Of a stretch of 24,000 nt of DNA, positions 1 to 13,457 are shown piece after piece. The notes below the pieces were generated by a model. The model had not been told where the DNA came from. It did no database searches and saw only the letters and a list, made by a program, of their open reading frames with translations. The position numbers and the translations under genes were made by a program. Each line of letters opens with the position of its first letter. Within the stretch, counting starts at the first letter, position 1. Source of the stretch: Actinomycetes bacterium (GTDB lineage: Bacteria > Actinomycetota > Coriobacteriia > Anaerosomatales > Anaerosomataceae); assembly GCA_022839745.1 (NCBI GenBank), contig JALHJB010000011.1, positions 8,622 through 32,621 on the forward strand, given 5' to 3'.

Positions 1-447
1 CTTGTCCGCGAGCGCGTACACACCCGATGGCGGCTGGACGCTCTGCGGCGGAAGGTCTACGACATCCTCGACACTGTCCACTATCAGACAGATCCTGTGC
101 GATCCCGCCGTACAGAAGACCATCGGCGTCTCGAGCGTGTACGGCACCCCCTCCAGGCCAACGAGCGTGCGCAGATCGAGCACCGGGATCACCGCACCCC
201 GCAACTCGATCAGTCCCACGAGGGCCGGGTCATCGTCCGGGACCGGCAGAAGCTCGGCCAGCTGCTGGATCTCGTCGACCCGCTCGATCGGCAGGCCATA
301 GAGTTGTCCGGCGAGCCGGAACGCTACGGCGCGATCGATATCGCTCAGCGAGGGCGCCGGTGCGGCGCCCTCAGCGAGCGTGTCAGCCTTGGCGTCGGAG
401 CCGATCGCGTCGATCACATCATCCTGTGTGTGCTCATTGCCCAACAC
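1..447 (-). CDS. cheW: CheW-like chemotaxis coupling protein (partial; C-terminus runs off the left window edge)
   Basis: Missing from the ORF track because the frame is open at the window edge. Minus-strand translation starts at GTG 447, with AAGGAG at 453-458 and a 5 nt spacer. It reads VLGNEHTQDDVIDAIGSDAK...AVAFRLAGQLYGLPIERVDEIQQLAELLPVPDDDPALVGLIELRGAVIPVLDLRTLVGLEG...CLIVDSVEDVVDLPPQSV. This is the classic CheW-domain pattern. The frame stays open to position 1 (149 codons) with high GC3. The RBS overlaps the stop of the upstream gene, so the two are in one operon. Confidence 0.8.
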   Translation of the reverse strand, partial: MLGNEHTQDDVIDAIGSDAKADTLAEGAAPAPSLSDIDRAVAFRLAGQLYGLPIERVDEIQQLAELLPVPDDDPALVGLIELRGAVIPVLDLRTLVGLEGVPYTLETPMVFCTAGSHRICLIVDSVEDVVDLPPQSVQPPSGVYALADK

Positions 448-457
448 GCGAACTCCT

Positions 458-2311
458 TCACCCGGTGAAGCGCAGGACCCTGTTCAGTTCCTCGGCACTG
501 ACCTCACCATTCTTGACCCTCAACAGGCCCGCAGCCGCCAACGGACGCATGCCAGCGGCGGTGGCCGCCGCGGAAATATCACTGACACCGGTGGCACGGC
601 CCACCGCGGCCCGTACGGGTTCGGTGAACGGCAGCACCTCGTGGATCGCGATGGCGCCGCGGAAGCCCGACTTGCCGCAGTTGGGACACCCCGACCCCGC
701 TCTGTCGCGGAGCCCCGCCGGCGCGCCCGGGATGCGGGACGCCAGCACGCCGTCGGTCTCGACCGAGCAGTTCGGGCAGTTGAGGCGCACGAGCCTCTGT
801 CCTACGGCAAGTGTGAGGGCCGCAGCGAGGCTATGCGGTTCGGCGCCAAGGTCGAGCATACGCCAGATACCCGAGGCGATATCCGCCGCCGCGAAGGTGG
901 CCACCACGAGCTTGCCCATCCCTGCCGCCTCGACCGCGAGGTGCACGTCCTCGACGCTTCGCAACCCGTCGACCGCGATCACATCGGTGTCCTGACGCAT
1001 CCCCGCGGCGATGTACGCTGCCGAGGACAGCCCGCCCGGCTCGATCATCACCTGGGCGACCGCCGGGATCTCATGTTCGATCGACTGCTCAACGGAGTAC
1101 ACGGTCTTGCCGGCCCCCGCGGCATGGGCGAGCAACGCGTAGTACGTTGCGCTCGCACCGCCCGCCACGGGTGCGCACACGAGCAGGATCCCCCGCCCGC
1201 GCTCGACCATCGCCCTGAGCGCACGCGCCTCGGCCTCGGAAACGCCGAGCTCCTCGAGCCCCCGCGGCTCAGCCTTGAAGGCGGCAAGCGAGACAACGAG
1301 GCGCTGCCCCGCGATCGTAGGCACGACCGAGATCGTGAGCACAAGGTCCTTGTCGGCGATATGCGTGCGGACCCTTCCGAGCGCCGGCCGCGTGGCCGGA
1401 ACGCCGCCAAGGTGCGCGTACTGCTTGAATCCGTCCACAAGCCCGTTCTGCAGAGAAAGCGGCGCCGAAGCGATCTTCTCGAGGCTTCCCCTGACGCGAT
1501 AGACCAGGAAGAAGTCGTCCTTGTATGGCAGCAGGTGTATCCGGCTCGCGCCTCTGGCGACCGCGTGGTCCAGGATGTCGGCCACGAGCACCGCGACCTT
1601 GCGGGTGTCAGCCACGGCGAGCACATCAAGGTCGATCGCCGCCGGCCCGGACTGCACCGCGGACTCGGCGGCCATCTGTTCCATCGTCTCGCTGATGGCC
1701 ACCGCCGCCCGGCTCGACGCGGCCTCGTCCACGGGAGCGACCGGAACGGCCGCCGTTTGATCGAGGGGCTCCTCGAAGAAATCCGAAGCCTCGACGACCT
1801 CGGTGTCGACATCGGCCGGAACACCCGGCGCCTGGGCGGCCGCGGAATCAGCGTGCTGCGCAACGGCCGCGTCGGTGTAGTACTGGCCGAGGGCGTTGTC
1901 CACTGACACCGGATCGGCGAGAACAGCCTCGACCTCCAGGCCGATGCGCTCGGCCACGGTGTCAAGGGCGAAGACGTCCATCGGGTCACCGACAGCGACG
2001 GTCAACATACCCTCGATCTCGAAGAGCGGCAGCACGCGGAACTCGCGCGCGACCGGAGCGGGCACGAGTGCGATGGCGTCGTCTTCGGGCGCATAGCTCG
2101 CCAGGTCGACCTGAGGGACACCCATCTCGTGCTCGAGCACCGACATCACATCGAATGGGCTCACATAGGCGCGCTCCATCAGGATCGCACCCTCATGGGT
2201 GCCCGCGGACCGCGCGGCATCCACCACGCTGCCCGCCTGCTCCGCTGTCATCAGCCCGGCCTCGACCAGACCGTCGAGGACCCGGCGTGAGATCCCGCTT
2301 GCCGGCGACAT
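458..2311 (-). CDS. GspE/PilB-family secretion-ATPase-like protein with an N-terminal T2SSE_N/MshEN-like domain; catalytic motifs degenerate (predicted pseudo-ATPase)
   Basis: 617 aa ORF. The N-terminus (LDGLVEAGLMTAEQAGSVV...GVPQVDLASYAPEDDAIALVPAPVAREFRVLPLFEIEGMLTVAVGDPMDVFALD) matches the T2SSE_N fold. The core (ILDHAVARGASRIHLLPYKDDFFLVYRVRGSL...) and the C-terminal tetracysteine CPNC...CPNC match GspE/PilB. The Walker A position reads APVAGGAS, the GEIRD position reads DGLRS, and the His-box position reads ATFAAAD. Confidence 0.85.
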   Translation of the reverse strand: MSPASGISRRVLDGLVEAGLMTAEQAGSVVDAARSAGTHEGAILMERAYVSPFDVMSVLEHEMGVPQVDLASYAPEDDAIALVPAPVAREFRVLPLFEIEGMLTVAVGDPMDVFALDTVAERIGLEVEAVLADPVSVDNALGQYYTDAAVAQHADSAAAQAPGVPADVDTEVVEASDFFEEPLDQTAAVPVAPVDEAASSRAAVAISETMEQMAAESAVQSGPAAIDLDVLAVADTRKVAVLVADILDHAVARGASRIHLLPYKDDFFLVYRVRGSLEKIASAPLSLQNGLVDGFKQYAHLGGVPATRPALGRVRTHIADKDLVLTISVVPTIAGQRLVVSLAAFKAEPRGLEELGVSEAEARALRAMVERGRGILLVCAPVAGGASATYYALLAHAAGAGKTVYSVEQSIEHEIPAVAQVMIEPGGLSSAAYIAAGMRQDTDVIAVDGLRSVEDVHLAVEAAGMGKLVVATFAAADIASGIWRMLDLGAEPHSLAAALTLAVGQRLVRLNCPNCSVETDGVLASRIPGAPAGLRDRAGSGCPNCGKSGFRGAIAIHEVLPFTEPVRAAVGRATGVSDISAAATAAGMRPLAAAGLLRVKNGEVSAEELNRVLRFTG

Positions 2312-2320
2312 CCGCCGCCC

Positions 2321-2701
2321 CTAACCCTGTACCTTGGACAGCTCTTCAGCGACCGCCGCCAGCAACGTGTCCGGCTCGACGGGCTTCGTCAGATACTGGT
2401 TAGCACCGGTGCGGATACCGGTGGCCATAGCCTGCTCCTCGGTCTTGGCCGTGAGCATGATGATCGGGATCTGCTTGTAGTTCTGGTCGAACTTCAGGAG
2501 CCGACAGACGCGATAGCCGTCAAGCTTGGGCAGCATCACGTCGAGCAGGATGAGATCGGGCTTCTCGGCCCGGGCGGTCTCGAGCGCCTCGGCACCGTCA
2601 GATGCGGTGATCACGTCGTACCCACCCGCAAGAAGGATCGCCTTGATCATCTCGAGGATGGTAGGGCTGTCATCGACCGCGAGGATCCGAGCGCCTGCCA
2701 T
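2321..2701 (-). CDS. Single-domain CheY-like response regulator (receiver domain only)
   Basis: 126 aa reading ARILAVDDSPTILEMIKAILLAGGYDVITASDGAEALE...PDLILLDVMLPKLDGYRVCRLLK...IPIIMLTAK...YLTKP. It carries the DD...D...T...K receiver signature. RBS GGGAGGGAG lies upstream. The gap to the next gene is 9 nt. Confidence 0.9.
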   Translation of the reverse strand: MAGARILAVDDSPTILEMIKAILLAGGYDVITASDGAEALETARAEKPDLILLDVMLPKLDGYRVCRLLKFDQNYKQIPIIMLTAKTEEQAMATGIRTGANQYLTKPVEPDTLLAAVAEELSKVQG

Positions 2702-2768
2702 ACGAGTCTCCCTCCCGATTGCCCGCGGAGCGCGCCGGACCCCCGGCGCATCACCGCATCCGGTCCCA

Positions 2769-4349
2769 TTATCCCTTGCCGGCCGCTTTCCGACACTCTA
2801 TCAGACTACGTTCACACGTCCTGATCAGCAGATCCGCCTGAAACCCGCCAGAGAACTCGGTCCAGTCGCCCTCGGGACTCTTCCTGAGAGCACGTAGGGC
2901 GTTCTCGTACTCCTTGGCCGCCGCGTCGAACTGGCGCTGCGCCTTGTAGATATTGGCGAGGTTCAGGTGCGCCAGCGCGAAGTCGGCGTCGATGTACACC
3001 GTCTTCTTCAGCTCGCTGATGGCACGCACCGCGTCGCCCTGCCGCTGGTGGATGATGCCGAGGATGTACCGTGCCACCGGCAACAAGGGGTTGATCGCAA
3101 GCGCGCGATTGCACTCCGCGAGGGCCTCGTCGTAGTCACCGGTGTCCGCATGCACGTAGGCGAGCAGCAGGTGCGCGTCCGCGTTGTTCGGATCGAGCTC
3201 CAACACGCGTCGCGCCTCATCCACTGTCTGCTCCGGACGACCTTCGCGCAAATCGGTGCGCGCTCGGTCGAGGATGGCAGCCACGTCGCCCGTTGCCGCC
3301 GATGGCCGGGTCCCGGCGCTGCCCGGGGATCCCGCCGCCGTTGCGGCAGGCGTGCCGGATCCGGTCCGGGCTCGTGAGGAGCGTGCAGCGGACGCCGCCG
3401 GTTGCTGTGCGGTCGCGGCCGCACGCGCACGTTCTCTGCGGCTGTCACCGGCCCGCGCGCCATGCGGCGCCCGCGGATGGCCCGGCACGAACAGCGTCTG
3501 TGCCGCGGGCTTCCGATACAAGAAGACGTCGCCGACCTCAACAGCCTCGAAGTCGTCGCTGATCGAAGTGAGTGTCTCCGAGTGGCCGATGAACAGATAG
3601 CCGCCATCGTTCAGGCTGTCGTAGAAGTTGCGCACCACACGGCGCGTGGATTCGATCCTGAAGTAGATGGTGACATTGCGACAGAAGATGATGTCCCAGT
3701 TGCCCATCACCGATAGCGGATACGGCTCTTTGATGAGGTTCTGATAGCCGAAGTCCACGAGCGAGCGCACCCGGTCGTTCACGCGGTAGTCGCCGGTGGG
3801 GGTCATCTCGAAATGCCGCGCGACCATGTCGGGCGCCACGTTGGTCATCGCACGCCTGCCGTACACGCCAGCACGGGCCCGTCCGAGCGCCTTGGTGGAC
3901 ACGTCGGTCCCGAGCACCTGGGGATTCCATCCGCTCGCGCTGAGCGCCATATCGTTCAGCAGCATCGAGAGGGAGTACGGCTCCTCGCCCGTGGAACATC
4001 CGGCGGACCATATCCGCAGGTCGCGATTGCCGACGGGTTTCGAGGCCATGATCTCCGGTAGCACCTGGTCCCGAAGCGCGTCGAACTGCGCCGGGAAGCG
4101 GAAGAAGCTGGTCTCGTTGATGGTCACGAGGTTCAGCAGCTCATTGAACTCACGGTCGTCCTTCTCAAGAGCGTTGTAGTACTCATCGAACGTGGTGTAG
4201 CCGAGCCGCGTGGCCCGCGTCACGAGCGAGATGCGTAGCGAGTCGAGCTTGGACTCCTCGAGGTAGATGCCCGAGTGCCGGTGGACAAGGTCCCGGAAGC
4301 GGCGGAACTCCTCGAGGTCGAGGTCCTTGGCGAGTCCCTCGTTCAGCAT
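2769..4349 (-). CDS. cheR: CheR-type protein-glutamate O-methyltransferase with a C-terminal TPR domain
   Basis: 526 aa. The N-terminal two thirds are CheR (FRRFRDLVHRHSGIYLEESKLDSLRISL...NETSFFRFPAQFDAL...LRIWSAGCSTGEEPYSLSMLL...IFCRNVTIYF...GGYLFIGHSE). An Ala/Ser/Gly-rich linker follows. The C-terminus holds TPR repeats (ADAHLLLAYVHADTGDYDEALAECNRALAINP...AHLNLANIYKAQRQFDAAAKEYENAL). Confidence 0.9.
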   Translation of the reverse strand: MLNEGLAKDLDLEEFRRFRDLVHRHSGIYLEESKLDSLRISLVTRATRLGYTTFDEYYNALEKDDREFNELLNLVTINETSFFRFPAQFDALRDQVLPEIMASKPVGNRDLRIWSAGCSTGEEPYSLSMLLNDMALSASGWNPQVLGTDVSTKALGRARAGVYGRRAMTNVAPDMVARHFEMTPTGDYRVNDRVRSLVDFGYQNLIKEPYPLSVMGNWDIIFCRNVTIYFRIESTRRVVRNFYDSLNDGGYLFIGHSETLTSISDDFEAVEVGDVFLYRKPAAQTLFVPGHPRAPHGARAGDSRRERARAAATAQQPAASAARSSRARTGSGTPAATAAGSPGSAGTRPSAATGDVAAILDRARTDLREGRPEQTVDEARRVLELDPNNADAHLLLAYVHADTGDYDEALAECNRALAINPLLPVARYILGIIHQRQGDAVRAISELKKTVYIDADFALAHLNLANIYKAQRQFDAAAKEYENALRALRKSPEGDWTEFSGGFQADLLIRTCERSLIECRKAAGKG

Positions 4350-4371
4350 CCCGTCACCACATGAGTGCTCA

Positions 4372-5103
4372 TCACGCAGGGACCTCGATGCGCTCGATCA
4401 GACCCGCGGCGTGCATGCCGTAGAGGATCTTGGCGGTCTCAAAATCGTTGTAGCCGGTGAGGTCGACGAGCTCTTTGACCGACCGGCCACCGTGCAGGTA
4501 GCACAGCAGCATCCATTCGCGCGGCTTGAGGTGTATCTCCATCGACTTGTCGCCGGGAGCCGAGGCCATGACGAACTCGGTCTCCATGTTCGGGATCTTC
4601 TGCTTGATCCTGCTCCACAGTTCGAGCCTGCGCGACGCCTCCATGATGATGTTCTCGACCGAGACCGAGATGCCGATGTCCTCATCATCACAGGTCTCGT
4701 CAGGCTCGAAGCGCAGTTCTCCCTCTTCCCAGCGGAACAGGTCGAACAGCGTGTCGTTGATCTGCTCCTGGATGAACGACTCCAGCACACGGCCGTCGAG
4801 GTAGCCCTCATCCACGAGGATCTGTCCCAGCCTGCGCCCGGCCTTCTCCTTCTTCTGGATCTTCTGGAGGCCAAGCGCCTGCCGGAGCTGCTTCTCGGAG
4901 ATGACACCCGCCTTCACCAAACGCCTGCCCAGCGACTCACGATGCCAGTTGGAGCTCGCGAAGAACACGCGGCCCTTCTTGAAGCAGACTTTGCCCTGCG
5001 CGTCGGGCCGCTCCAGATACAGGGTGCCGGTCTTCCGGCCGGTGGCGAGCAGACGGAACATGTCCGCAATGGAGAAATCTCTGAGGTTGCCCTCGAGCGC
5101 CAC
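4372..5103 (-). CDS. PATAN/DUF4388-domain protein with a tandem MshEN-type (GspE-N-like) motif region
   Basis: The ORF track extends to 5241. I prefer GTG 5103 because GAGGGG sits 8 nt upstream, giving the N-terminus (M)ALEGNLRDFSIADMFRLLATGRKTGTLYLE, which is typical of DUF4388. The 5104-5241 stretch has visibly lower GC3 and contains a candidate promoter. The central region LGRRLVKAGVISEKQLRQALGLQ...RRLGQILVDEGYLDGRVLESFIQEQ resembles the T2SSE_N/MshEN motifs. Confidence 0.8.
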   Translation of the reverse strand: MALEGNLRDFSIADMFRLLATGRKTGTLYLERPDAQGKVCFKKGRVFFASSNWHRESLGRRLVKAGVISEKQLRQALGLQKIQKKEKAGRRLGQILVDEGYLDGRVLESFIQEQINDTLFDLFRWEEGELRFEPDETCDDEDIGISVSVENIIMEASRRLELWSRIKQKIPNMETEFVMASAPGDKSMEIHLKPREWMLLCYLHGGRSVKELVDLTGYNDFETAKILYGMHAAGLIERIEVPA

Positions 5104-5177
5104 AGGTCGCACCCCTCGTATCGCGTCAACGCAGCGGGAGTATCGGTTCAGCCGGCCCCTCGGGCGGCTGCCACTCA

Positions 5178-5186
5178 ATCGTAGCA
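5178..5186 (-). promoter_or_regulatory. Candidate extended -10 element (TGCTACGAT on the minus strand) for the chemosensory-like operon
   Basis: It matches TGnTAnnnT. The same TGCTA-type element recurs upstream of ftsE, smpB and ssrA in this window. It lies about 75 nt upstream of the preferred GTG start at 5103. No clear -35 element was found. Confidence 0.3.
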
Positions 5187-5271
5187 CGTCAGACAGGTCG
5201 CTCAAACGTTTGCGGATTTGTCCTGAATCAGTCTTGCGCACCGCCTTAAACTAGCTTACGCTTCATCTTGT

Positions 5272-5297
5272 AGTACATGCGCATATTCGAATGTACT
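5272..5297. promoter_or_regulatory. Inverted repeat AGTACAT-N12-ATGTACT with an inner ATTCGAAT palindrome; candidate ArsR-family operator
   Basis: Read directly from the sequence: AGTACATGCGCATATTCGAATGTACT. It lies in the relatively AT-rich divergent intergenic region just upstream of the SD (GGAGG 5298-5302) and the GTG 5307 start of the ArsR gene. ArsR/SmtB repressors typically bind imperfect inverted repeats overlapping their own promoters. Confidence 0.3.
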
Positions 5298-5306
5298 GGA
5301 GGAATT

Positions 5307-5633
5307 GTGGATCAGAGCGAGTTCTTCTGCCTGCACTCGGATCTCTGCAAGACGCTCGCGAGCCCCAAGCGGCAGATGATCCTGAGCGCACTCAGAGACG
5401 GAGAGTCGGCCGTCAATGAGATCCAGGAGCGTACCGGCATCCCGCAGGCCACCCTCTCCCAACACCTCGCGATCCTCCGCTCGGCGGGCGTCGTCCGCAC
5501 CAGGCGCGAAGGCAACCGCATCTTCTACGCGATCACCAACCCCAAGATCATCCAGGCGTTCGACCTGATCACCGAGGTGATGCAGGAGATCATTGACGGT
5601 CGTAAGGACGCTGCGAACGGCGCCGAGGGCTGA
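5307..5633 (+). CDS. ArsR/SmtB-family winged-helix transcriptional regulator
   Basis: The sequence LCKTLASPKRQMILSALRDGESAVNEIQERTGIPQATLSQHLAILRSAGVVRTRREGNRIFYAI is the canonical ArsR HTH. I prefer GTG 5307, 4-5 nt after GGAGG. The in-frame ATG 5277 used by the track has no SD and would put the palindrome inside the CDS. Both starts share the stop at 5633. Confidence 0.85.
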   Translation: MDQSEFFCLHSDLCKTLASPKRQMILSALRDGESAVNEIQERTGIPQATLSQHLAILRSAGVVRTRREGNRIFYAITNPKIIQAFDLITEVMQEIIDGRKDAANGAEG

Positions 5634-5691
5634 AAGCGGTCGCGCGCGACTGCCGGGGATAGCACGGACTACCGACACGAGGGAGGCATCA

Positions 5692-6174
5692 GTGGACGAG
5701 AACGGAAAGAAGAGCCTGGCGATGGTGGTGATGAGCGGCGACTTCGACAAGTTGACAGGCGCATTCATCATCGCAAACGGCGCCGCCGCAATGGGCATGG
5801 ACGTGACGATGTTCTTCACGTTCTGGGGCCTGCGTGCGCTGAAGAAGAACGTTCGCACGGGGAGCACGTTCTTCGGCAAGATGGTCGGCCTGATGTACGG
5901 CGGGGGCATCGAGAAGTCCCACCCGTCGAAGTTCGCCTTCGGTGGCATGGGCCGGTGGATGTTCAACAAGATGATGAAGAACCACGGCGTGCAGTCGCTG
6001 TCCGAGATGCGCGACCTCGCCCTCCAGCTCGGCGTCGGCCTCTACGCCTGTCAGATGTCGATGGACGTCATGGAGATCCCCCAGGAGTCCTTCGTAGATG
6101 GCGTGAAGGACCCGGTCGGCGTGGGCTTCTTCCTGCTCAAGGCGCAGAACGCCGACATCCAGTTGTTCATCTAG
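5692..6174 (+). CDS. DsrE/DsrF-like family sulfur-relay protein (DsrE2/DsrE3-type, COG2210-like)
   Basis: Start is GTG 5692 after GAGGGAGG; the track ORF begins upstream at 5593 in the same frame. The sequence LAMVVMSGDFDKLTGAFIIANGAAAMGMDVTMFFTFWGLRALKK...LYACQMSMDVMEI...IQLFI has the DsrE-like fold pattern. It contains a single conserved-looking Cys, in YACQMS. Confidence 0.75.
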   Translation: MDENGKKSLAMVVMSGDFDKLTGAFIIANGAAAMGMDVTMFFTFWGLRALKKNVRTGSTFFGKMVGLMYGGGIEKSHPSKFAFGGMGRWMFNKMMKNHGVQSLSEMRDLALQLGVGLYACQMSMDVMEIPQESFVDGVKDPVGVGFFLLKAQNADIQLFI

Positions 6175-6271
6175 CGACACCAGGCTCGGAAGTATCCGCC
6201 CGCCCTGATGGCGAGCGGTGGGGATGGATCGCGCGCCACCGGGCGCGTGACTGACAGAAAGGAACCACACC

Positions 6272-6514
6272 ATGTCTGACGAGACCAAGATCGACCTGGA
6301 GCTCGACCTCAAGGGCCTCCTCTGCCCGCTGCCGATGGTGAAGGTCAGCCAAAACATCAACAACGTGCCGGTGGGCGGCGTGATCCGCGCCGTGGCGACC
6401 GACCCGGGTGCCATGGCGGACATCCCCGCGTGGGCACAGTCGACCGGCAACGAGGTCCTGTCCGCCGACAAGGAAGGCTCCGAGTTCGTCTTCCTCGTCA
6501 AGCGCGTCAAGTAG
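6272..6514 (+). CDS. tusA: TusA/SirA-family sulfurtransferase
   Basis: 80 aa reading LDLKGLLCPLPMVKVSQNINNVPVGGVIRAVATDPGAMADIPAWAQSTGNEVL. It has the CPxP active-site motif and the typical TusA length. Confidence 0.85.
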   Translation: MSDETKIDLELDLKGLLCPLPMVKVSQNINNVPVGGVIRAVATDPGAMADIPAWAQSTGNEVLSADKEGSEFVFLVKRVK

Positions 6515-6533
6515 CGAGGGGTCCTCACCAACA

Positions 6534-7262
6534 ATGGAAACCTATCTCTGGATAACCTCGGTATGGGGGGTGTACCTGGCCCTCGCGGTCTTCATCGTGG
6601 GGATCGGCCTCCGGATCTACCAGTGGGCGACCACGCCGAAGTCAGCGGTTCGGCTCGGGATGTTCCCCAAGCCGGCCACAAAGTCGGGCCGCTTCTTCAA
6701 GATGCTGAAGGACACGTTCATCGCTCCGCACTCCGCCAAGATCGAACCCACGATGTGGCTCTTCTCGATGATCTTCCACGTGGCGGCGCTCGCGGCGTTC
6801 GTGGGGCACCTGCGCATCCTCGGCGAGTACCCGATCCTGCCGGGGCTGCTCGGCGGCGAGCACGCCATGAACAACTTCGCCGCGTACGCCGGGTCGATCG
6901 CCGGCACGCTCATGCTGGTAGGCGTGGTGTTCTGGATCGCACGGCGCACCTTCGGCCCGTACAAAAACCTCTCGGTGCCGGAGGACTACCTGCTGCTCGC
7001 CCTGCTCTTTGGCGTGATCATCATGGGCGACCACCTGCGCTTCGTGTACGGCGGCTTCATCCACGCCGACACGTACCAGGAGTGGTTCAAGAGCCTGCTG
7101 GCCTTCAAGCCGATGTTCCCTGAGAAGCTGCTCTCGGGCAACGTGGGCTGGTCGCTCGGCACGCACATGCTCTTCACCGACCTGCTGCTGATGTACTTCC
7201 CGTTCAGCAAGCTCGTGCACACCATCGGGTCATTCGCCGCGAACTACGTGAGGAGTGAGTGA
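6534..7262 (+). CDS. DsrM/HdrE/NarI-like integral membrane di-heme cytochrome b (quinol-interacting subunit)
   Basis: Start is ATG 6534 (METYLWITSVWGVYLALAVFIVGIGLRIYQW...); the track ORF starts earlier in the same frame. It has multiple hydrophobic helices with conserved-type His residues (FHVAALAAFVGHLRILG, GDHLRF, FIHADTY, KLVHTIGSF), as in nitrate reductase gamma / DsrM family proteins. Its stop is coupled to the next gene: the two are 2 nt apart and the RBS of the next gene lies inside this gene. Confidence 0.7.
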   Translation: METYLWITSVWGVYLALAVFIVGIGLRIYQWATTPKSAVRLGMFPKPATKSGRFFKMLKDTFIAPHSAKIEPTMWLFSMIFHVAALAAFVGHLRILGEYPILPGLLGGEHAMNNFAAYAGSIAGTLMLVGVVFWIARRTFGPYKNLSVPEDYLLLALLFGVIIMGDHLRFVYGGFIHADTYQEWFKSLLAFKPMFPEKLLSGNVGWSLGTHMLFTDLLLMYFPFSKLVHTIGSFAANYVRSE

Positions 7263-7264
7263 CG

Positions 7265-8578
7265 ATGGAGAAGGTGCAACTCGAGACCCTGACGGGTGTC
7301 ATCGACAAGAAGATGAACCGGCAGCTCAAGCAGTACATCGACATCTGCGCACGCTGCGCCATCTGCAAGGATGCCTGCCACCAGTACGTGGGCACCGGGG
7401 ACTTCAAGTACCTCCCCGCCCGCCGGGCTGAGCTGATCCGGCAGATCTACAAGAAGTACTTCGACAAGGCGGGCCGCTTCGTGCCGGCGCTCTACGAGGC
7501 GCGCGAGCCCGATGACAACCTGCTCGATGAGCTGTACGACTCCACGTACGCCTGCACCGGCTGCCGCCGCTGCATGTACTACTGCCCCTTCTCGATCGAC
7601 ACCGCGTGGATCCTCTCAGTGGCCAAAGCGATCCTGATCGCCGCCGGTCGTGGGAACGAGATGCTCGGCCAGCTCGCCGACGCCGCGATCTTCAAGGGCG
7701 ACAATGCGGCGATGTTCGAGGGCGTGATGCTGAGCGGTTTCGACGACATCTCGGAGGAGGTCCGCGCTATCACGGGCAACCCCGAGCACAAGGTGCACGT
7801 GAACAAGGAGGGCGCGGACGTCCTGTACGTGGCGCTCGCCGGTGCGCACTCGATCCGCCCGGCCGCGGTCATCTTCGAGGAGGCCGGCGAGAACTGGACC
7901 ATCTCCATGTTCGAGGCGGCCAACTACGGCTTCTTCTACGGTGACACGGAGAAGGCGCGCATCATCACCAAGCGCTACATCGACGAGGCCAAGCGTCTCG
8001 GCGTGAAGGAGATCGTGGTGCCCGAGTGCGGACACGCCTACCGCGTGGCCGAGTTCTTCTACGAGGCGTGGAGCAAGGAGCCGATGCCCTTCAAGGTCAG
8101 CCATATCCTTGAGAAGGTCGACGACTACATCAAGTCCGGCCGCATAAAGGTGGATCGCGGCAAGATCGCCGGTAAGGTCACCTACCACGACCCGTGCCAG
8201 CTCGGCCGCAACGGCGGCAAGTTCGAGCAGCCGCGCGACATCGTGAAAGCCGTCACGAGCAACTTCGTGGACCTCACGCCCAATCGGGCCGAACAGTGGT
8301 GCTGCGGCGGAGGCGGCGGCATCGTGGCTATGGAGGAGTTCAAGGACGTCCGGCTGAAGTCGGGCATCAAGAAGGTCGAGCAGCTCAAGGCGAGCGGCGC
8401 CAGCGTTCTGGCGTGCCCCTGCGAGAACTGCCGCCTGCAAATCGAGGAACTCAACGACGTGCACGGCCTTGGTCTTGAGATCTGGCAGGTCATCGACCTG
8501 GTGGTGGCGGCTATGCCGCTTCCGGGCAGCCAGCGTTCAGTCGAGGCCGCCCCCGCTGGGGAGGGCGCCAACGCGTAA
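7265..8578 (+). CDS. DsrK/HdrD-like iron-sulfur oxidoreductase (two ferredoxin-type 4Fe-4S motifs plus a C-terminal CCG domain)
   Basis: Start is ATG 7265, 9 nt after AGGAG 7251-7255; the track uses GTG 7259. Motifs are CARCAICKDAC, CTGCRRCMYYCP, and HDPCQLGR...WCCGGGGG...CPCENC. The last follows the C..CCG..CxxC pattern of heterodisulfide-reductase-type catalytic subunits. Confidence 0.8.
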   Translation: MEKVQLETLTGVIDKKMNRQLKQYIDICARCAICKDACHQYVGTGDFKYLPARRAELIRQIYKKYFDKAGRFVPALYEAREPDDNLLDELYDSTYACTGCRRCMYYCPFSIDTAWILSVAKAILIAAGRGNEMLGQLADAAIFKGDNAAMFEGVMLSGFDDISEEVRAITGNPEHKVHVNKEGADVLYVALAGAHSIRPAAVIFEEAGENWTISMFEAANYGFFYGDTEKARIITKRYIDEAKRLGVKEIVVPECGHAYRVAEFFYEAWSKEPMPFKVSHILEKVDDYIKSGRIKVDRGKIAGKVTYHDPCQLGRNGGKFEQPRDIVKAVTSNFVDLTPNRAEQWCCGGGGGIVAMEEFKDVRLKSGIKKVEQLKASGASVLACPCENCRLQIEELNDVHGLGLEIWQVIDLVVAAMPLPGSQRSVEAAPAGEGANA

Positions 8579-8604
8579 CCGGCTCGCGGACGCGCGAAGG
8601 CACG

Positions 8605-8632
8605 CAGGGGCGTCGGGAAACCGGCGCCCCTG
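8605..8632. terminator. GC-rich hairpin between convergent genes (candidate bidirectional terminator)
   Basis: CAGGGGCG-loop-CGCCCCTG, with additional inner pairing (CGG/CCG). It lies between the dsrK-like stop (8578) and the stop of the convergent gene at 8641. There is no U-tract. Confidence 0.5.
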
Positions 8633-8640
8633 TCGCATTC

Positions 8641-9480
8641 CTACGAGGAGCGTGCGGCTGTGAGCGCGAGGGCGAGATGCCGCACCTCATCGCGCGTGGT
8701 GATGCCGCCGTCATCGGCAACGAGCAGCCCCCCGGCCTGCGCCGCCACGCCGATGGTGCTGCCGATGGCCTCGGCGCGTGCGGGGTTACCGAGCTCGCCT
8801 GTGAGCAGCCCGCCGATCACGGCGAGTCCGGCCTCTCGCGCGGCCCAGAACAGCCGGTCGAACCGCTCGAAGTCGAGCCCGCCTCCGGCGTGGACAGCCA
8901 CGAAGCCGGCACGCGCGATCGCGTGGAGCAACGGCCGTACGTCGCCGTCCGAGTGCAGCACACAGGGCAACCCGAGGGCGCCGGCGGCCTGTACAAGACG
9001 CGCGTACCGTGGCAGCAACTCGGCTATTGCGAAGTCGGGTGCGATGAGCGGGCCGCTGGTGCCCGCAAGGTCCTCGGCGAGCACGATCGCGCGAACGCCT
9101 GCTCGCGCCCCGTCCGCCACCTGCTGCAGTACCCCATCCAGACGCGCCTCGATCGACTCCCCCACGCGCTCGGGGTCGGTGAGCGTCGCGCGGAGACCTT
9201 GCAGCTCACCCCGCTCGAGCACGACCGGCCACAGCGGCCCGTCGACCACCCAAAACGGTGCGACACCGGCATCAAGAAGCGCGATGACCGCGTCGCCGGC
9301 CCAGGGGGCACCGGACGGTACGAACGCGAACGAGGCTCCGAGGGCGACACACGCGGCCACAAGGCGGTCTGCGGGGGTGTCGTGCGGCGTTGGCGCATAT
9401 CCCGGCACGTCGAGCATGTCGGGCGACACGAACGTGAGACCGAACGGGAAGGGTGACCCACTGACTGGCAGCCGCTCCAT
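8641..9480 (-). CDS. Uroporphyrinogen-decarboxylase-like (URO-D/MtaA-like TIM barrel) family protein, short form; function unknown
   Basis: Start is ATG 9480 (MERLPVSG...), 2 nt after the upstream gene's stop; the longer track ORF extends into that gene. The segment VRAIVLAEDLAGTSGPLIAPDFAIAELLPRYARLVQAAGALGLPCVLHSDGDVRPLLHAIARAGF resembles the URO-D-like family core. This is my recognition only and is tentative. Confidence 0.45.
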   Translation of the reverse strand: MERLPVSGSPFPFGLTFVSPDMLDVPGYAPTPHDTPADRLVAACVALGASFAFVPSGAPWAGDAVIALLDAGVAPFWVVDGPLWPVVLERGELQGLRATLTDPERVGESIEARLDGVLQQVADGARAGVRAIVLAEDLAGTSGPLIAPDFAIAELLPRYARLVQAAGALGLPCVLHSDGDVRPLLHAIARAGFVAVHAGGGLDFERFDRLFWAAREAGLAVIGGLLTGELGNPARAEAIGSTIGVAAQAGGLLVADDGGITTRDEVRHLALALTAARSS

Positions 9481-9482
9481 GG

Positions 9483-9947
9483 CTACATGCTGCGTATGCC
9501 GAAGCCCACGGCCTCGGACAGCACCCATACCACGAGGAATGCACCGGTGACGCCAAGAGAGACGGACAGGAACGCACGCTTGGGCTCCATGTCCAGCAAC
9601 CACGATGCGGCCGTTCCGGCGTACGCGCCGGTACCCGGGAGCGGTACCGCCACGAACAACGCGAGGCCCCAGAACCCGTACTTCTCCACGAGGGGATGTG
9701 CCTTGGCACGTATCTTCTCGAACTTGCGGTGGAACCAGCCTTCCTGCGGGAAGCGCTTATAGACGAACTCCAGGAAGTAGTAGCCCGGCCAGAAGATGGC
9801 CAGGCTCGCGAGCCAGATGATCGGCAGGTAGACCGTCTCACCGGCTGCCACCGCCCACGGGATCGCCGCCCGAAGCTCGATCGTCGGGATCCAGGAGACG
9901 AAGACGTACTTGAGCCACTCGGGCAGACCACTCAGGAACTCGGGCAT
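9483..9947 (-). CDS. Small membrane protein of the COG2426 / putative small multidrug export family
   Basis: 154 aa with about four hydrophobic helices. WIPTIELRAAIPWA...FWGLALFVAVPLPGTGAYAGTAASWLL matches my memory of this family. It is tightly packed between its neighbours, with 3 nt and 2 nt gaps. Confidence 0.65.
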   Translation of the reverse strand: MPEFLSGLPEWLKYVFVSWIPTIELRAAIPWAVAAGETVYLPIIWLASLAIFWPGYYFLEFVYKRFPQEGWFHRKFEKIRAKAHPLVEKYGFWGLALFVAVPLPGTGAYAGTAASWLLDMEPKRAFLSVSLGVTGAFLVVWVLSEAVGFGIRSM

Positions 9948-9950
9948 CAG

Positions 9951-10325
9951 TTACCTTTCGGGCGAGAAGACGTCGTAGATCCGCTCCACCTCGGAGCGCC
10001 AGTACGCCTCCGGATCGGAGACATCACGGCCGAGGCGCGCCGCGTTGCGGAAGTAGCCGCCGCCGGGCATCCCGGAGTCGGCGCGCACCACGAGCGAGGC
10101 GAGCATGATGCCATGCTCGGCATCGGCCTCGGTGCAGATCTCGTTCAGGAATCCCATGATCGCCCACGACCGCGGCTTGAGTACGATCGCGCTCACCGCG
10201 CGGCAGATCTCGCCGTAGGTGATCGTGCCGCGCTCGCGCGCGCGCTCCTGCAGAAGCGCGTTCGCCTCGGCCTTCGCCGCCTCCCACGCCTCGATGGGGA
10301 ATCCGTATCGGGTGTCCTTGGGCAT
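9951..10325 (-). CDS. Hypothetical protein (possible winged-helix-like fold); first gene of a three-gene operon
   Basis: 124 aa with high GC3. [12 protein letters not shown]...[39 protein letters not shown] is reminiscent of MGMT-DBD/ATL-like winged-helix modules, but I cannot assign a family. There is no SD; a -10-like CATACT lies 6 nt upstream of the ATG. Confidence 0.5.
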
Positions 10326-10331
10326 GGGGGA

Positions 10332-10337
10332 AGTATG
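10332..10337 (-). promoter_or_regulatory. Candidate -10 (TGgCATACT on the minus strand) positioned for a leaderless transcript of the 9951-10325 gene
   Basis: The hexamer ends 6 nt before ATG 10325. No SD-like purine run lies between them. Confidence 0.3.
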
Positions 10338-10407
10338 CCATACGCGCCACGACCGCTCCGCGCTCTGTCACGCGCCCGTTGCCCCGGCGCCGCGCTGCGG
10401 CCTCGCG

Positions 10408-10413
10408 TATCAT
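10408..10413 (+). promoter_or_regulatory. Candidate -10 (TATCAT) positioned for a leaderless arfB transcript
   Basis: TATCAT-gagcgc-ATG. The 6 nt spacer places the predicted transcription start (TSS) at or next to the A of ATG 10420. No SD is present. Confidence 0.35.
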
Positions 10414-10419
10414 GAGCGC

Positions 10420-10788
10420 ATGGACGACACCCGCTACGACATCCCCGCCGATGACACCGATCTGCTTGCCGAGTGCGACGTTTGGGTCTTCCGCGCCACC
10501 GGACCGGGTGGGCAGGGCGTGAACACCACCGACAGCGCGGTACGCCTGCGTCACCGGCCGAGCGGCATCACGGTAGTGTGCCGTCGGGAGCGCAGTCAGC
10601 TCCAGAACAAGCGTGCGTGTCTCGAGCGCCTGCGCGAAAAGCTGGAGGAGCACAACGCCGCGCTCGACGCCCCCAAGCGCGTGCCCACCCGGAAGAGTCG
10701 CGCGGCCAAGGCACGGCAGGTGGAGGCGAAACGATACCGGGCGCGCGTTAAGCGCGCGCGGGGACGCGTGGACCGCGGCGAGGAGTAG
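10420..10788 (+). CDS. arfB: Alternative ribosome-rescue factor ArfB (RF-1-domain peptidyl-tRNA hydrolase)
   Basis: Start is ATG 10420; the track ORF begins upstream at 10219. 122 aa reading [48 protein letters not shown]. It has the GGQ motif followed by a Lys/Arg-rich C-terminal tail, the ArfB/YaeJ architecture. Confidence 0.85.
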
Positions 10789-10882: not shown

Positions 10883-11234
10883 TGGTGGAGGCGAGGAGAA
10901 TCGAACTCCTGTCCACGACAGCCCCCTGGGGAGCATCTCCAGGCTCAGTCACATCTTGGCGTTCGGTTCGGGCGACACGGTGTGACGAGCGTGCCCGTTC
11001 CTAGCTGGTTCGGTCTTTCGCACAAGCATACCGGCTACGTCTTATGCGGCAGTCCCCTGAGTGACGTCAGATCCGGTGACGGGGACTCGCACCGGGAGAC
11101 GTCGCTGCGCTATTTAGGCAGCGAGAGCAAAGTCATTGTCGACGTTTGAGCGTCGTGTGCCCCTGTTTAGCGAGGTAAGGCGACCTCGGCCTGCTTCTCC
11201 CCTCAGAACTCCCGTGTCGAAACCAGTCGCCCCC
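10883..11234 (-). ncRNA. ssrA: tmRNA (transfer-messenger RNA, SsrA)
   Basis: The minus-strand 5' end GGGGGCGACTGGTTTCGACACGGG pairs with the 3' end ...GGAGTTCGATTCTCCTCGCCTCCACCA. The acceptor stem has a G3:U pair, a T-arm GTTCGATTC and an encoded CCA. The internal tag reading frame is ...GTC GAC AAT GAC TTT GCT CTC GCT GCC TAA (…VDNDFALAA-stop, about 11114-11146). It ends in the canonical ALAA. Confidence 0.9.
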
Positions 11235-11297: not shown

Positions 11298-11418
11298 AGA
11301 CGGGGAGCACGCGGCGTGCCAGTGCCGTGCGAGTGTGTGCCCCTGACGCGCCGGGACGGCGTTTGGGGGTATCCTGTGCTCAGGAGCACCACGCCCAGGC
11401 TGCCGAGAGGAGCCCCCG

Positions 11419-12519
11419 ATGGACCAGAACGAGTACCCGCCTCCCCCGTCTGCACCTGAACCACCCCCGGCACCAGTGACTCCTCCTGAGCCGCAGCCCG
11501 CCCCTCCGGCTGAGCCCGCACCCCCCGCACCCCCCGCGCCGCCGGCGCCCGAGATCCCGCCGCCCCCGGCCCCGATGGCTCCACCGCCACCGATGCCCAC
11601 CGCGGCACCGGTCACGCCGCCGGCAGCCCCTCCCCAGGCAGCTCCGCCTGTGGCGCCTGCGGCCCAGTACGCACCACCGCCTCCACCCGACGCGGGCACG
11701 CCGGCCTATGCCGCGCAGGCCACTCCCCCGCCTAAGAAGAGCAAGACGCTCGTGATCGTGCTCGTGATCCTCGGCGTGCTGCTCCTCTGCTGCATCGGCT
11801 CGGTCATCGGCGGCCTGACGATCTTCTCGAGCACGGTGGACGAGGTCAGCAGTTCCCTTGAAGACGCCGGGATCGATGTGGAGGTGCCGGACACACAGAC
11901 CGGTGATACCGGCTCCGGTGATGTGACCGGAGGACGGGCCGAGTGGGAGGCATTCCAACCGCAGCTCGTCGACGCATCCATCTATGCCGAGCCGACCGCG
12001 GCGCAGTCGGCCCTGATAGAGGAGATCCACAACGAGCTGTATCCGGACTTCATAATCGAAGACACGGTTGCCGAGCCGGGAATCGAGGACGCCGAGTCGT
12101 ACCATCCGGACATGCTGTACGTGAAGGCCTCGCTGGCACGCGACCCGGATGTCCGGATCGCCTACTACCTGTGGACCGATTCCGAGGCATCGAAGGCCGG
12201 AGGCGTCCACTTGACCGAGGACCAAACCGAGACCTACGAGACGCTCGCGCAGTCGTCGGACGGCACGTACTACATCTACGATCATGAGAACCTCATGGAC
12301 CTGATGAGCGGCTCGGTCGACGACGATCTGGTATCGGTGCTCAAGCAGGCCGAGGTGGACTTCCCGGGTTACGTCGCCATCATGGCGGGCGACGATGGCG
12401 ACAACATCGGTGTCGTCGTCACGCGCTGGGAGGCGTTCCCGGACCTGGAGGAGGGCCTTGCGGTCACGTTCTCGCCCGACGGGAACGGCTGGGCCGTCCA
12501 GGACGTGACGGACTGGTAG
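11419..12519 (+). CDS. Hypothetical single-pass membrane protein: about 110 aa proline-rich N-terminus, one TM helix, acidic C-terminal domain
   Basis: 366 aa with SD GAGAGGAG upstream. The N-terminus is PPPPSAPEPPPAPVTPPEPQPAPPAEPAPPAPPAPPAPEIPPPPAP.... It is followed by KKSKTLVIVLVILGVLLLCCIGSVIGGLTIF (a TM helix) and then a 230 aa Asp/Glu-rich domain with no family I recognise. Confidence 0.7.
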   Translation: MDQNEYPPPPSAPEPPPAPVTPPEPQPAPPAEPAPPAPPAPPAPEIPPPPAPMAPPPPMPTAAPVTPPAAPPQAAPPVAPAAQYAPPPPPDAGTPAYAAQATPPPKKSKTLVIVLVILGVLLLCCIGSVIGGLTIFSSTVDEVSSSLEDAGIDVEVPDTQTGDTGSGDVTGGRAEWEAFQPQLVDASIYAEPTAAQSALIEEIHNELYPDFIIEDTVAEPGIEDAESYHPDMLYVKASLARDPDVRIAYYLWTDSEASKAGGVHLTEDQTETYETLAQSSDGTYYIYDHENLMDLMSGSVDDDLVSVLKQAEVDFPGYVAIMAGDDGDNIGVVVTRWEAFPDLEEGLAVTFSPDGNGWAVQDVTDW

Positions 12520-12567
12520 TACGCGCAAACCGAGTGCCCTGTACCGCGCACTCGCCTCAAGACACGC

Positions 12568-12595
12568 CGAAGGGCCGCCCGCGGGCGGCCCTTCG
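12568..12595. terminator. Perfect 12 bp GC hairpin between convergent genes (candidate bidirectional terminator)
   Basis: CGAAGGGCCGCC-CGCG-GGCGGCCCTTCG. It lies between the stop at 12519 (+) and the smpB stop at 12620 (-). Confidence 0.55.
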
Positions 12596-12619
12596 CGGCA
12601 TCGCGCCGAGCGCCGGATC

Positions 12620-13090
12620 CTACTCGCCCTTGTTCCGGTCTCGCAGCGCGCGTTCGACATCGCGCTTCTGGTCGCGCTCGGCGATCGCATCGCGCTTGTC
12701 ATACAGCTTCTTGCCCCGGGCCAGGCCGATCTCGACCTTCACGAGGTTCCCCGGCGAGAGGTAGACCTTGAGTGGCACGAGCGTGTACCCGCGCTCTTTG
12801 GTCTTGCCGAGCAGATACCGGATCTCGGAGCGGTGCAGCAACAGCTTCCGCTCCCGATCGACCCGCACGTTGCTGCGGTTCCCATGGCTGTATGGCGAGA
12901 TGTGGACGTTGTGCAGCCAGACCTCGCCTCGCCTGATCGTGGCGAAGCTGTCGCGCAGGTTCGTCTTGTTCTCGCGCAGCGACTTGACCTCGGTGCCGGT
13001 GAGCACGATGCCGGCCTCGAACGTCTCGTCCACGAAGTAGTCGTGGTACGCCTTCTTGTTGGTGGCGATGATCTTCTCTTCACGGGCCAT
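12620..13090 (-). CDS. smpB: SsrA-binding protein SmpB
   Basis: Start is ATG 13090 ([67 protein letters not shown]...LLLHRSEI...[11 protein letters not shown]...[17 protein letters not shown]). This is an unmistakable SmpB sequence. The track ORF extends 29 codons further upstream. Confidence 0.95.
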
Positions 13091-13127
13091 GCGGTGCGTG
13101 GTTCCTCTCATACTATGCGACGTGCTG

Positions 13128-13137
13128 ATGCTAGCAT
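13128..13137. promoter_or_regulatory. Perfect 10 bp palindrome ATGCTAGCAT that reads as an extended -10 (TGCTAGCAT) on both strands; candidate symmetric bidirectional promoter
   Basis: On the minus strand it lies about 38 nt upstream of smpB ATG 13090. On the plus strand it lies about 33 nt upstream of ATG 13170. Both readings match TGnTAnnnT. Confidence 0.35.
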
Positions 13138-13169
13138 GAGCGTGAGGATGATCCGCGAAAGGACACGAC

Positions 13170-13457
13170 ATGGACACGATGGGCTACCAGCAACCGGCAC
13201 CCGCTCAGCGGAACGACCCCCAGTACATCGCGTATCTCGAGCAGCGTATCGCCGCACTCGAGGCACGTCTGCCACGCACGAAGGTCGTCGCACCGGGCTT
13301 CTGGACGCGCGCGTTCGCTATCTGGGGCCATGGCCTCGCGGCGCAGTTCGTGGTTGGCGCCGTGCTCGGCATCGTGTTCACGCTGATCAGCCTCGTCTTC
13401 GCAGGCGGAATGGCCGCCATGCTCGGGCCCGTCCTCGAGAACGCGACGTACTACTAG
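13170..13457 (+). CDS. Hypothetical small membrane protein (95 aa)
   Basis: AAAGGA lies upstream of ATG 13170. GC3 is good. The C-terminal half is hydrophobic ([41 protein letters not shown]). I recognise no family. Confidence 0.5.

Follow-up and report, generated by a model that had tools for sequence, protein, structure and literature searches.

A complex of the DsrMK type is commonly taken as a sign of sulfite or sulfur metabolism that depends on DsrAB, and the locus described here raises the question of what such a complex might act on when it is encoded beside two other proteins of sulfur transfer, TusA and DsrE. The locus lies in a stretch of 24,000 nt from an Actinomycetes bacterium (Anaerosomataceae; GCA_022839745.1, contig JALHJB010000011.1, positions 8,622-32,621, forward strand), referred to throughout as the window. 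Positions 5272-8635 of the window hold an operator palindrome, arsR, the gene of a soluble DsrE2B-type protein, tusA, the gene of a NarI-type di-haem protein, a DsrK-like gene and a hairpin (Table 1). An earlier reading by a model, made from the DNA letters alone (the sequence-only reading), had named five co-directional genes of these families, all of which are present by their Pfam and NCBIfam matches, and had proposed that TusA and/or the DsrE-like protein takes the place of DsrC as the carrier served by the DsrK-like subunit. The answer favoured here is tentative, given with a little less than even confidence, and argued from synteny and analogy: the operon may encode an ArsR-controlled, membrane-bound thiol/disulfide oxidoreductase of DsrMK/HdrDE architecture whose substrate would be the TusA/DsrE2B pair instead of DsrC, with release of H2S.

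The conservation of the genes as a unit was assessed by scanning one genome per GTDB species with the DsrK-like protein, which yielded 158 relatives; the best 80 (50-96% identity) were taken with 8-kb flanks, and gene order was counted after all six reading frames of each locus had been searched for open reading frames (ORFs) matching the five proteins of the window. The 80 loci come from Coriobacteriia/OPB41, Dehalococcoidia, UBA1414 (Ca. Humimicrobium), other Actinomycetota and metagenome-assembled genomes (MAGs) labelled Bacillota. Sequence records with the operon include OY969691.1, CP070842.1 and BDLO01000001.1. Co-occurrence of the gene order across genomes, which the sequence-only reading had named as a check on its proposal, is extensive: in 77 of the 80 loci the genes stand as DsrE-TusA-DsrM-DsrK, and the three exceptions are two loci without upstream DNA (L014 and L049) and one that holds a DsrMK-like pair and lacks dsrE and tusA (L075). 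An order shared by so many species-level genomes from several phyla is therefore not due to chance. ArsR stands ahead of the set in most loci and was undetected in about ten (including L030, L069, L073, L076, L078 and L080). Clustering of the flanking ORFs of all 80 loci revealed shared neighbours only among close relatives of the window, in the form of clade-specific housekeeping genes, and Pfam searches of the flanks of eight divergent loci returned unrelated functions (CrcB, RlmN, Feo, aldo-keto reductase, ZIP, ABC transporters and a methyl-accepting chemotaxis protein). Because the flanks are unrelated between clades, the conserved unit consists of exactly these four or five genes. The DsrK-like protein has 1311 homologues at E<=1e-20, the closest named of which are from uncultured Coriobacteriia/Anaerosomatales, and a look-up of its cluster aimed at the cultured Anaerosoma/Parvivirga, of which Parvivirga reduces no sulfur compound, returned MAG accessions only among the members.

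Several variants of the locus were also observed. A single-domain rhodanese gene lies convergently, directly 3' of the DsrK-like gene, in two of the 80 flanks, both UBA1414-type (L079, 9271-9600, minus strand; L075, 9283-9615, minus strand), so that L075 combines the DsrMK-like pair with a rhodanese and is without ArsR, DsrE and TusA. Two Dehalococcoidia genomes carry a second TusA plus DsrE-like pair about 8 kb downstream of the module (L061, 16559-17218; L063, 15662-16324), and one locus has two tandem tusA genes within the module (L059, 6744-7270).

The statement of the sequence-only reading that no dsrAB, dsrC, aprAB, sat, sqr, hdrABC or lipoate-binding genes lie within the window holds for the larger ORFs scanned with Pfam, which contain no dsrAB, dsrC, apr, sat, sqr, hdrABC or lipoate-protein domain and three of which have no Pfam match. 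Within the reach of the DsrC and TusE queries used, neither the window nor any of the 80 flanks contains a DsrC/TusE-like ORF, and the linkage to dsrAB and dsrC that characterizes DsrK is likewise absent from both. In a survey of 950 dsrAB genomes, the carriers among the Coriobacteriia are gut genera only, with no OPB41/Anaerosomatales (PMC10591310). The genome analysis of the first cultured Anaerosomatales (Anaerosoma and Parvivirga) does not mention dsr and limits the determinants of thiosulfate reduction to a molybdoenzyme (PMC9686372), and dsr genes are also unmentioned in the OPB41 and UBA1414 genome papers. Taking window, flanks and literature together, the absence of dsrAB and dsrC from the carriers is well supported, though not proven.

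The membrane complex, its putative carriers and its regulator

The DsrK-like protein matches the NCBIfam DsrK model (NF045796, an equivalog) over its full length at 301 bits, below the cutoff of 400, and other curated models follow at lower scores (TmcB, 226 bits; HmcF, 200 bits) or as weak partial matches (GlpC, GlcF, LutB and HdrB). The CCG subunit thus groups with DsrK, TmcB and HmcF and not with GlpC, GlcF or LutA, and the glycolate, lactate or GlpC-type affiliation that the sequence-only reading had named as fatal to its proposal was not found. Both [4Fe-4S] ferredoxin motifs and the CCG motif, CX(n)CCX(n)CXXC, are present, and fourteen cysteines are invariant in 75 of 75 orthologues (C28/31/34/38, C97/100/103/107, C255, C311, C346, C347, C386 and C389 in the 437-aa numbering). 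When 1.84 billion cluster representatives were searched exhaustively with this protein (HMMER), only two further ones at >=45% identity were found, after which identity falls sharply to 33-39%. Two representatives of the family itself, P0121 and P0122, score 269 and 259 bits on the DsrK model. NCBIfam classes P0132, at 451 bits, as a true DsrK, and its identity to the query is 35%; the other remote representatives are sub-threshold DsrK-like proteins or lie nearer HmcF/TmcB. A true DsrK is only about 35-39% identical to the DsrK-like protein. In a joint alignment, the family of the 80 loci forms one cluster with >=51% identity inside and <=43% to anything outside. The DsrK-like proteins are thus a separate, tight clade, and the complex lies outside the DsrK and DsrM equivalog families.

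The membrane subunit is similarly distant from its named relatives, with 66.9 bits on NCBIfam DsrM (NF038037, cutoff 300) and 44.6 bits on NarI (TIGR00351, cutoff 105.55). It aligns to NarI residues 47-210 and has the NarI fold with four histidine ligands of b haems in two helices; His82, His92, His167, His211 and His229 are invariant in 78 of 78 orthologues, and the spacing of the His82/92 and His211/229 pairs presumably corresponds to that of the NarI haem ligands. Four transmembrane (TM) segments exceed the hydropathy threshold, and the alignment to NarI suggests a fifth around His211-His229. Of the names DsrM and DsrK given by the sequence-only reading, the architecture and DsrK as the best curated match stand, whereas strict family membership does not, both scores being below the equivalog cutoffs and the clade being separate. 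Judging from this architecture, the complex may nevertheless function as a DsrMK/HdrDE-type enzyme.

Structural comparison adds some detail. A sequence search of the PDB returned no DsrK structure, its only match being mycobacterial EtfD (9ojn), which aligns over the CCG domain alone at 45 bits. The C-terminal half of the AlphaFold model of the DsrK-like protein matches the LutA and HdrB folds (Foldseek), as would be expected if this subunit contains an HdrB-like CCG catalytic module. The NarI-like and DsrK-like parts occur as one ORF or protein of 641-670 aa in some relatives (L078, 7389-9314; L080, 7386-9311; P0123; P0134), and these natural fusions argue for a fixed 1:1 complex. A fusion (Rosetta-stone) search found no TusA or DsrE fused to DsrK-like proteins; instead, it returned a C-terminal DsrC-like domain (PF04358) on the DsrK/HmcF-like representative P0131 and a response-regulator receiver domain on another such representative, P0129. 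The former shows a CCG subunit of the superfamily paired with a small cysteine-carrier protein.

Both small proteins encoded beside the complex retain their cysteines. The single cysteine of the DsrE-family protein in YACQMS and the CPLP of TusA are present as the sequence-only reading had described them, and no orthologue has lost either residue (TusA Cys18, 77 of 77; DsrE Cys120, 73 of 73). TusA has the TusA fold with the active-site cysteine in an N-terminal CPXP motif, scores 72 bits on PF01206 (cutoff 28.6) and matches 1PAV and E. coli TusA in the PDB, with a score below the NCBIfam TusA equivalog cutoff (45.8 versus 78 bits). The DsrE-like protein scores 155 bits on PF13686 and misses the NCBIfam DsrE2 equivalog (88.7 versus 210 bits). 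In the PDB it is closest to 3PNX and 2QS7, to both of which its cysteine aligns, and the latter is SSO1126, the DsrE2B of S. solfataricus (PMC4175335). Because hydropathy gives no TM segment and the cysteine is aligned in the match to 2QS7, the protein can be assigned as a soluble DsrE2B-type carrier, having the DrsE_2 domain, cysteine position, solubility and location beside a CCG enzyme of that group. The earlier call of a DsrE-family protein with one cysteine is therefore kept and narrowed to the soluble DsrE2B type.

The regulator scores 86.6 bits on the NCBIfam model HTH_metalloreg (cutoff 55) and is below the BigR equivalog (74.7 versus 155 bits). Its best solved relatives are BigR (3pqj), a sulfur-responsive repressor, followed by the ArsR-family entry 6o8k-6o8o, which we take to be the persulfide sensor SqrR. 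Conserved residues of the N-terminal helix include Cys14 (64 of 64), Cys8 (49 of 64) and His10 (54 of 64). The palindrome at 5272-5297 lies just 5' of the arsR Shine-Dalgarno (SD) sequence, and related palindromes with the core ATTCGCATATTCGAAT precede arsR in many loci of the Coriobacteriia and, among the Dehalococcoidia, in L055 and L056. These conserved palindromes point to an operon that is probably autoregulated by its own ArsR, for which a reactive-sulfur signal is plausible.

The sequence-only reading had described the module as one with no DsrAB/DsrC in view. The module is indeed self-contained and is conserved in lineages not listed as dsrAB carriers; the absence of dsrAB from those genomes has the weight given above. 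With the CCG subunit in the DsrK group and the cysteines invariant, nothing that the sequence-only reading had named as contradicting its proposal (an evident dsrAB-dsrC partner locus, another affiliation of the CCG protein, or loss of the carrier cysteines) was encountered in the window, the flanks or the literature.

Proposed mechanism and competing explanations

In the proposed cycle, Cys18 of TusA would take up sulfane sulfur (from polysulfide, S0 or low-molecular-weight persulfides) as a persulfide, which Cys120 of DsrE would attack. This step would yield H2S and leave the two proteins joined in a mixed disulfide (TusA-S-S-DsrE) or in a trisulfide like that of DsrC. At the DsrK-like subunit, the CCG-bound Fe-S cluster would then reduce the TusA/DsrE adduct with electrons drawn from the membrane pool (menaquinol or an equivalent carrier) through the two b haems of the NarI-like subunit and the two [4Fe-4S] clusters. 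The BigR-like ArsR would derepress the operon once its N-terminal cysteines are modified by reactive sulfur, and the net effect would be that strict anaerobes without DsrAB rid their cytoplasm of sulfane sulfur or respire it. Synteny and analogy suggest the TusA/DsrE pair as the substrate of the CCG site, and there are precedents for the individual steps: the trisulfide of DsrC is a substrate that DsrK reduces (PMC10504309); sulfur oxidisers that lack Dsr and DsrC have tusA-dsrE2 'inevitably' linked with hdr-like genes containing CCG (PMC4175335); and for Pcar_0429, in which an FAD-disulfide reductase, a rhodanese, TusA and DsrE are fused, reduction of S0 via a TusA/DsrE disulfide has been suggested (PMC3543383). 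The host lineages are strict anaerobes with membrane modules on the H2/formate side that reduce quinone, and they have no complex II or III (PMC9686372), a combination that favours the reductive direction. In its most specific form, the proposal is that of a Dsr-independent, energy-coupled protein heterodisulfide/persulfide reductase, in which TusA and DsrE2B, with one cysteine each, would jointly fill the role of DsrC (or of coenzymes M and B, CoM/CoB) and a distinct DsrMK-like clade would reduce their sulfur-bridged adduct with membrane-derived electrons; so specified, it is a doubtful proposition.

Several observations weigh against a menaquinol-driven reductase of TusA/DsrE adducts. In L075, the DsrMK-like pair stands without DsrE or TusA. 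The cysteine pair of BigR/SqrR (alpha2 plus alpha5, forming the di-/tetrasulfide switch) is not found in the regulator, where the MLVCTL of BigR aligns to MILSAL and the cysteine is replaced by serine. The AlphaFold model of the DsrK-like protein is of moderate confidence (predicted local distance difference test, pLDDT, 66; predicted template modelling score, pTM, 0.70). Menaquinol is a weak reductant for a persulfide or disulfide, and the reaction would be thermodynamically uphill. Quinones were undetected in both cultured Anaerosomatales (PMC9686372), and the DsrE2B of M. cuprina neither reacted with any sulfur compound tested nor bound TusA in vitro (PMC4175335).

The same components could also run in the opposite direction, with the complex oxidising thiol or persulfide sulfur on TusA/DsrE to a protein di- or trisulfide and delivering the electrons to the membrane pool, an input resembling that of sulfide:quinone oxidoreductase (SQR), as suggested for the action of DsrMK on DsrC in organisms that oxidise sulfur. 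In these, DsrMK(JOP) is regarded as oxidative (PMC8477390), tusA-dsrE2 is typical of them (PMC4175335), and a leucine at X of CPXP, as in the CPLP found here, has been described for the TusA proteins of sulfur oxidation (PMC11094781). However, the operon and its flanks contain no enzyme for further sulfur steps (no DsrAB, sHdr/LbpA or persulfide dioxygenase, PDO), and no high-potential quinol oxidase is known from the hosts, which are strict anaerobes (PMC9686372), so that an electron sink for oxidation is not evident. Oxidation is accordingly considered unlikely, and reduction of the TusA/DsrE2B adduct is retained as the preferred direction.

Quite unlikely, in turn, is an electron module like EtfD/EMO that performs no S-S chemistry and feeds or drains a biosynthetic or assimilatory TusA/DsrE relay (e.g., thiosulfate or thiosulfonate cleavage for cysteine or cofactor synthesis). 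Mycobacterial EtfD is the sole solved sequence relative, shares the domain logic and passes electrons from electron-transfer flavoprotein (ETF) to menaquinone; moreover, TusA has assimilatory roles in E. coli, and TusA and DsrE3A carry thiosulfonate (PMC4175335). Yet EtfD matches the CCG domain only, compared with the full-length match to DsrK, all five CCG cysteines and C255 are invariant, and no etfAB, transporter or biosynthetic gene is conserved beside the module.

An ordinary DsrMK that serves a canonical DsrAB/DsrC elsewhere in the genome, with TusA and DsrE as accessory sulfur donors, would explain why DsrK is the best-scoring curated family, and the dsrAB-dsrC-dsrMK operon of D. amilsii does include dsrE-like genes (PMC6378623). 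This explanation is nonetheless very unlikely given that both equivalog cutoffs are missed (301 versus 400 and 67 versus 300 bits), that true DsrK is only 35-39% identical, that the 80 flanks yielded no DsrC-like ORF to the DsrC and TusE queries used, and that OPB41/Anaerosomatales fall outside the dsrAB-carrying Coriobacteriia (PMC10591310), dsr being unmentioned for Anaerosoma/Parvivirga.

Least probable of all is a metal(loid) or selenium module, with an ArsR-type metalloregulator, carriers of Se, Te or As thiol adducts and a CCG enzyme regenerating them. In its favour, the regulator belongs to a metalloregulator family, TusA scores nearly as well on the selenium-linked YedF model as on its own (40.7 versus 45.8 bits), and in Pelobacter pairs of ArsR and a CCG oxidoreductase adjoin arsenic genes (PMC3543383). 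Against it, BigR, which is no metal sensor, is the regulator's best solved relative, no ars, selD or yedE is conserved nearby, and both YedF matches are below cutoff.

Gene models and the remainder of the window

The features of the operon are listed in Table 1. For arsR, the GTG at 5307 is the likelier start, being preceded by the SD sequence GGAGGA, while the alternative ATG at 5277 lies inside the palindrome. The spacing of 2 nt between the dsrM-like and dsrK-like genes reported by the sequence-only reading is correct: the TGA of the former ends at 7262, and the ATG of the latter at 7265 has its own SD sequence (GAGGAG, 7250-7255) 9 nt upstream. A consensus promoter and terminator scan of the operon region gave nothing informative; it did not call the hairpin at 8603-8635 because this has no U-run, and the fold of the surrounding region (8579-8650) has an energy of -41.3 kcal/mol (z -3.3 versus shuffles). 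Further GC-rich inverted repeats at 6211-6250, in the 97-nt dsrE-tusA spacer, and at 5636-5653, directly 3' of the arsR stop, may be mRNA processing or attenuation structures.

Table 1. Features of the operon region, in window positions
Feature	Position	Strand	Evidence
Putative ArsR operator, 26-bp imperfect palindrome with halves AGTACATGCGCAT and ATTCGAATGTACT	5272..5297		inverted repeat, 13-nt arms, 85% complementary
ArsR/SmtB-family repressor, 108 aa from GTG 5307	5307..5633	+	PF01022, E 1.8e-13
Soluble DsrE2B-type sulfur carrier, 160 aa, one Cys (Cys120, LYACQMS), start GTG 5692	5692..6174	+	PF13686 (DrsE_2), E 1.6e-45
TusA-family sulfur carrier, 80 aa, Cys18 in CPLP (LLCPLPM)	6272..6514	+	PF01206, E 3.6e-20
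NarI/DsrM-like di-haem b membrane subunit, 242 aa, start ATG 6534	6534..7262	+	PF02665, E 2e-19
DsrK-like cytoplasmic subunit, 437 aa, two [4Fe-4S] ferredoxin motifs and one CCG motif, start ATG 7265	7265..8578	+	Fer4_8 and CCG
GC-rich hairpin, 12-bp core stem and 2 further pairs, GAAA loop, at the operon end between convergent genes	8603..8635	+	RNA fold

The other genes of the window are housekeeping or unrelated (CheW, T2SSE ATPase, CheR-TPR, DUF4388, ArfB, tmRNA, SmpB, M42 peptidase, RNase R, CtpA, FtsEX, Nudix and UbiD/UbiX). Upstream of the operon, the block 1-5241 (minus strand) comprises CheW, a T2SSE/MshEN ATPase, CheR fused to TPR, and DUF4388; it adjoins the operon in closer relatives only (about 29 loci) and probably serves a pilus or chemosensory function that has nothing to do with the sulfur genes. 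The convergent gene downstream (8641-9603, minus strand) has a weak URO-D-family match (E 4.5e-4, below cutoff) and is kept in this place in close relatives only. Three ribosome-rescue elements follow within 3 kb, namely ArfB (RF-1 domain, 10219-10788, plus strand), the tmRNA gene (10883-11234, minus strand; tag VDNDFALAA, Rfam 144.9 bits) and smpB (12620-13177, minus strand), with a 440-aa ORF between the last two (11380-12702, minus strand) that has no Pfam match in either strand reading. At the end of the window lie a UbiD-family decarboxylase (21765-23366), a PAC_bac-like small protein (23239-23658) and a UbiX-type flavoprotein (23655-24000, cut by the window end), all on the minus strand. 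A role of UbiD/UbiX in support of menaquinone synthesis was considered and rejected; together with the PAC_bac-like gene, they resemble a decarboxylase set for aromatic acids that depends on prenylated FMN (prFMN), and cultured Anaerosoma uses 3,4-dihydroxybenzoate.

Significance and relation to known systems

The components all belong to known families, and the proposed chemistry would be an extrapolation of known CCG chemistry; what is new is a distinct DsrMK-like clade with fixed TusA/DsrE2B partners and its own ArsR in at least 80 species from several phyla of anaerobes. The open full-text literature yielded no description of a dsrE-tusA-dsrMK-like operon, closed-access reviews of TusA being outside that search. 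If the fixed pairing with TusA/DsrE2B in the absence of DsrAB holds, metagenome matches to this clade should not be scored as evidence of the Dsr pathway. If the proposed function is correct, a CCG active site can serve carrier proteins besides DsrC, and the complex becomes a candidate sulfane-sulfur reductase for widespread subsurface anaerobes (OPB41, Dehalococcoidia and UBA1414) whose electron sinks are poorly known. A true protein heterodisulfide/persulfide reductase would represent an unrecognised route of cytoplasmic sulfane-sulfur respiration or detoxification in subsurface Coriobacteriia, Dehalococcoidia and relatives, and might be the missing electron outlet for the membrane hydrogenases of these hosts. 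The module also offers a compact four-protein system for studying how CCG clusters act on protein-bound sulfur.

The module can be compared with several described systems. The YTD cluster (yedE-like, tusA, dsrE-like and two or three conserved proteins) is also a TusA plus DsrE-like unit of anaerobic sulfur metabolism (PMC13490349), but it has no DsrMK-like genes, and the module described here has neither a YedE-type transporter nor DsrEFH type II partners. In the tusA-dsrE2(-rhd)/sHdr clusters (hdrC1B1A-hyp-hdrC2B2), a TusA plus DsrE2-type pair likewise adjoins a CCG enzyme without DsrC (PMC4175335, PMC11094781). The sHdr system, however, is soluble, HdrA-containing and LbpA-dependent and takes sulfur to sulfite, whereas the present module has a membrane DsrMK-like pair and occurs in strict anaerobes, and none of hdrA, hdrB1/B2, hdrC1/C2 or lbpA was found among the window ORFs or the conserved neighbours. 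EtfD/EMO, the ETF:menaquinone oxidoreductase, follows the same logic of NarI-like, ferredoxin-like and CCG domains, but is a fusion of about 1000 aa that takes electrons from ETF and aligns in its CCG domain only; a fused NarI-FeS-CCG protein accompanied by EtfAB was not found here, although DsrM-DsrK fusions occur in L078, L080 and P0123.

A further comparison is offered by the Pcar_0429-type fusions, with which related NADH persulfide reductases and S. aureus CstA can be grouped as comparable systems. In the Pcar_0429 type, TusA and DsrE modules are tied to a disulfide reductase, and the published proposal has sulfide set free as a TusA/DsrE disulfide forms, which is reduced again afterwards (PMC3543383); the electrons there come from NADH via FAD in a soluble fusion, in contrast to the haem/Fe-S membrane complex and separate carriers found here. 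The nearest relative in architecture is DsrMK, the minimal form of DsrMKJOP, acting with DsrC: both systems combine a NarI-type di-haem subunit with a two-[4Fe-4S]/CCG subunit, both show translational coupling, and both have a small cysteine carrier as the presumed substrate, but two single-cysteine proteins (TusA and DsrE2B) stand here in place of the two-cysteine DsrC, and no dsrAB or dsrC is nearby. In HdrDE of methanogens, the methanophenazine:heterodisulfide oxidoreductase, a b-haem anchor and a CCG subunit use the electrons of a membrane carrier to reduce a disulfide formed between two unlike thiols. The module differs from HdrDE in that its thiols would be proteins instead of CoM and CoB, in that only one CCG motif was detected, and in its bacterial setting with no methanogenesis context, while the two are alike in the CCG fold, to which the match with HdrB in the C-terminal half of the DsrK-like model points.

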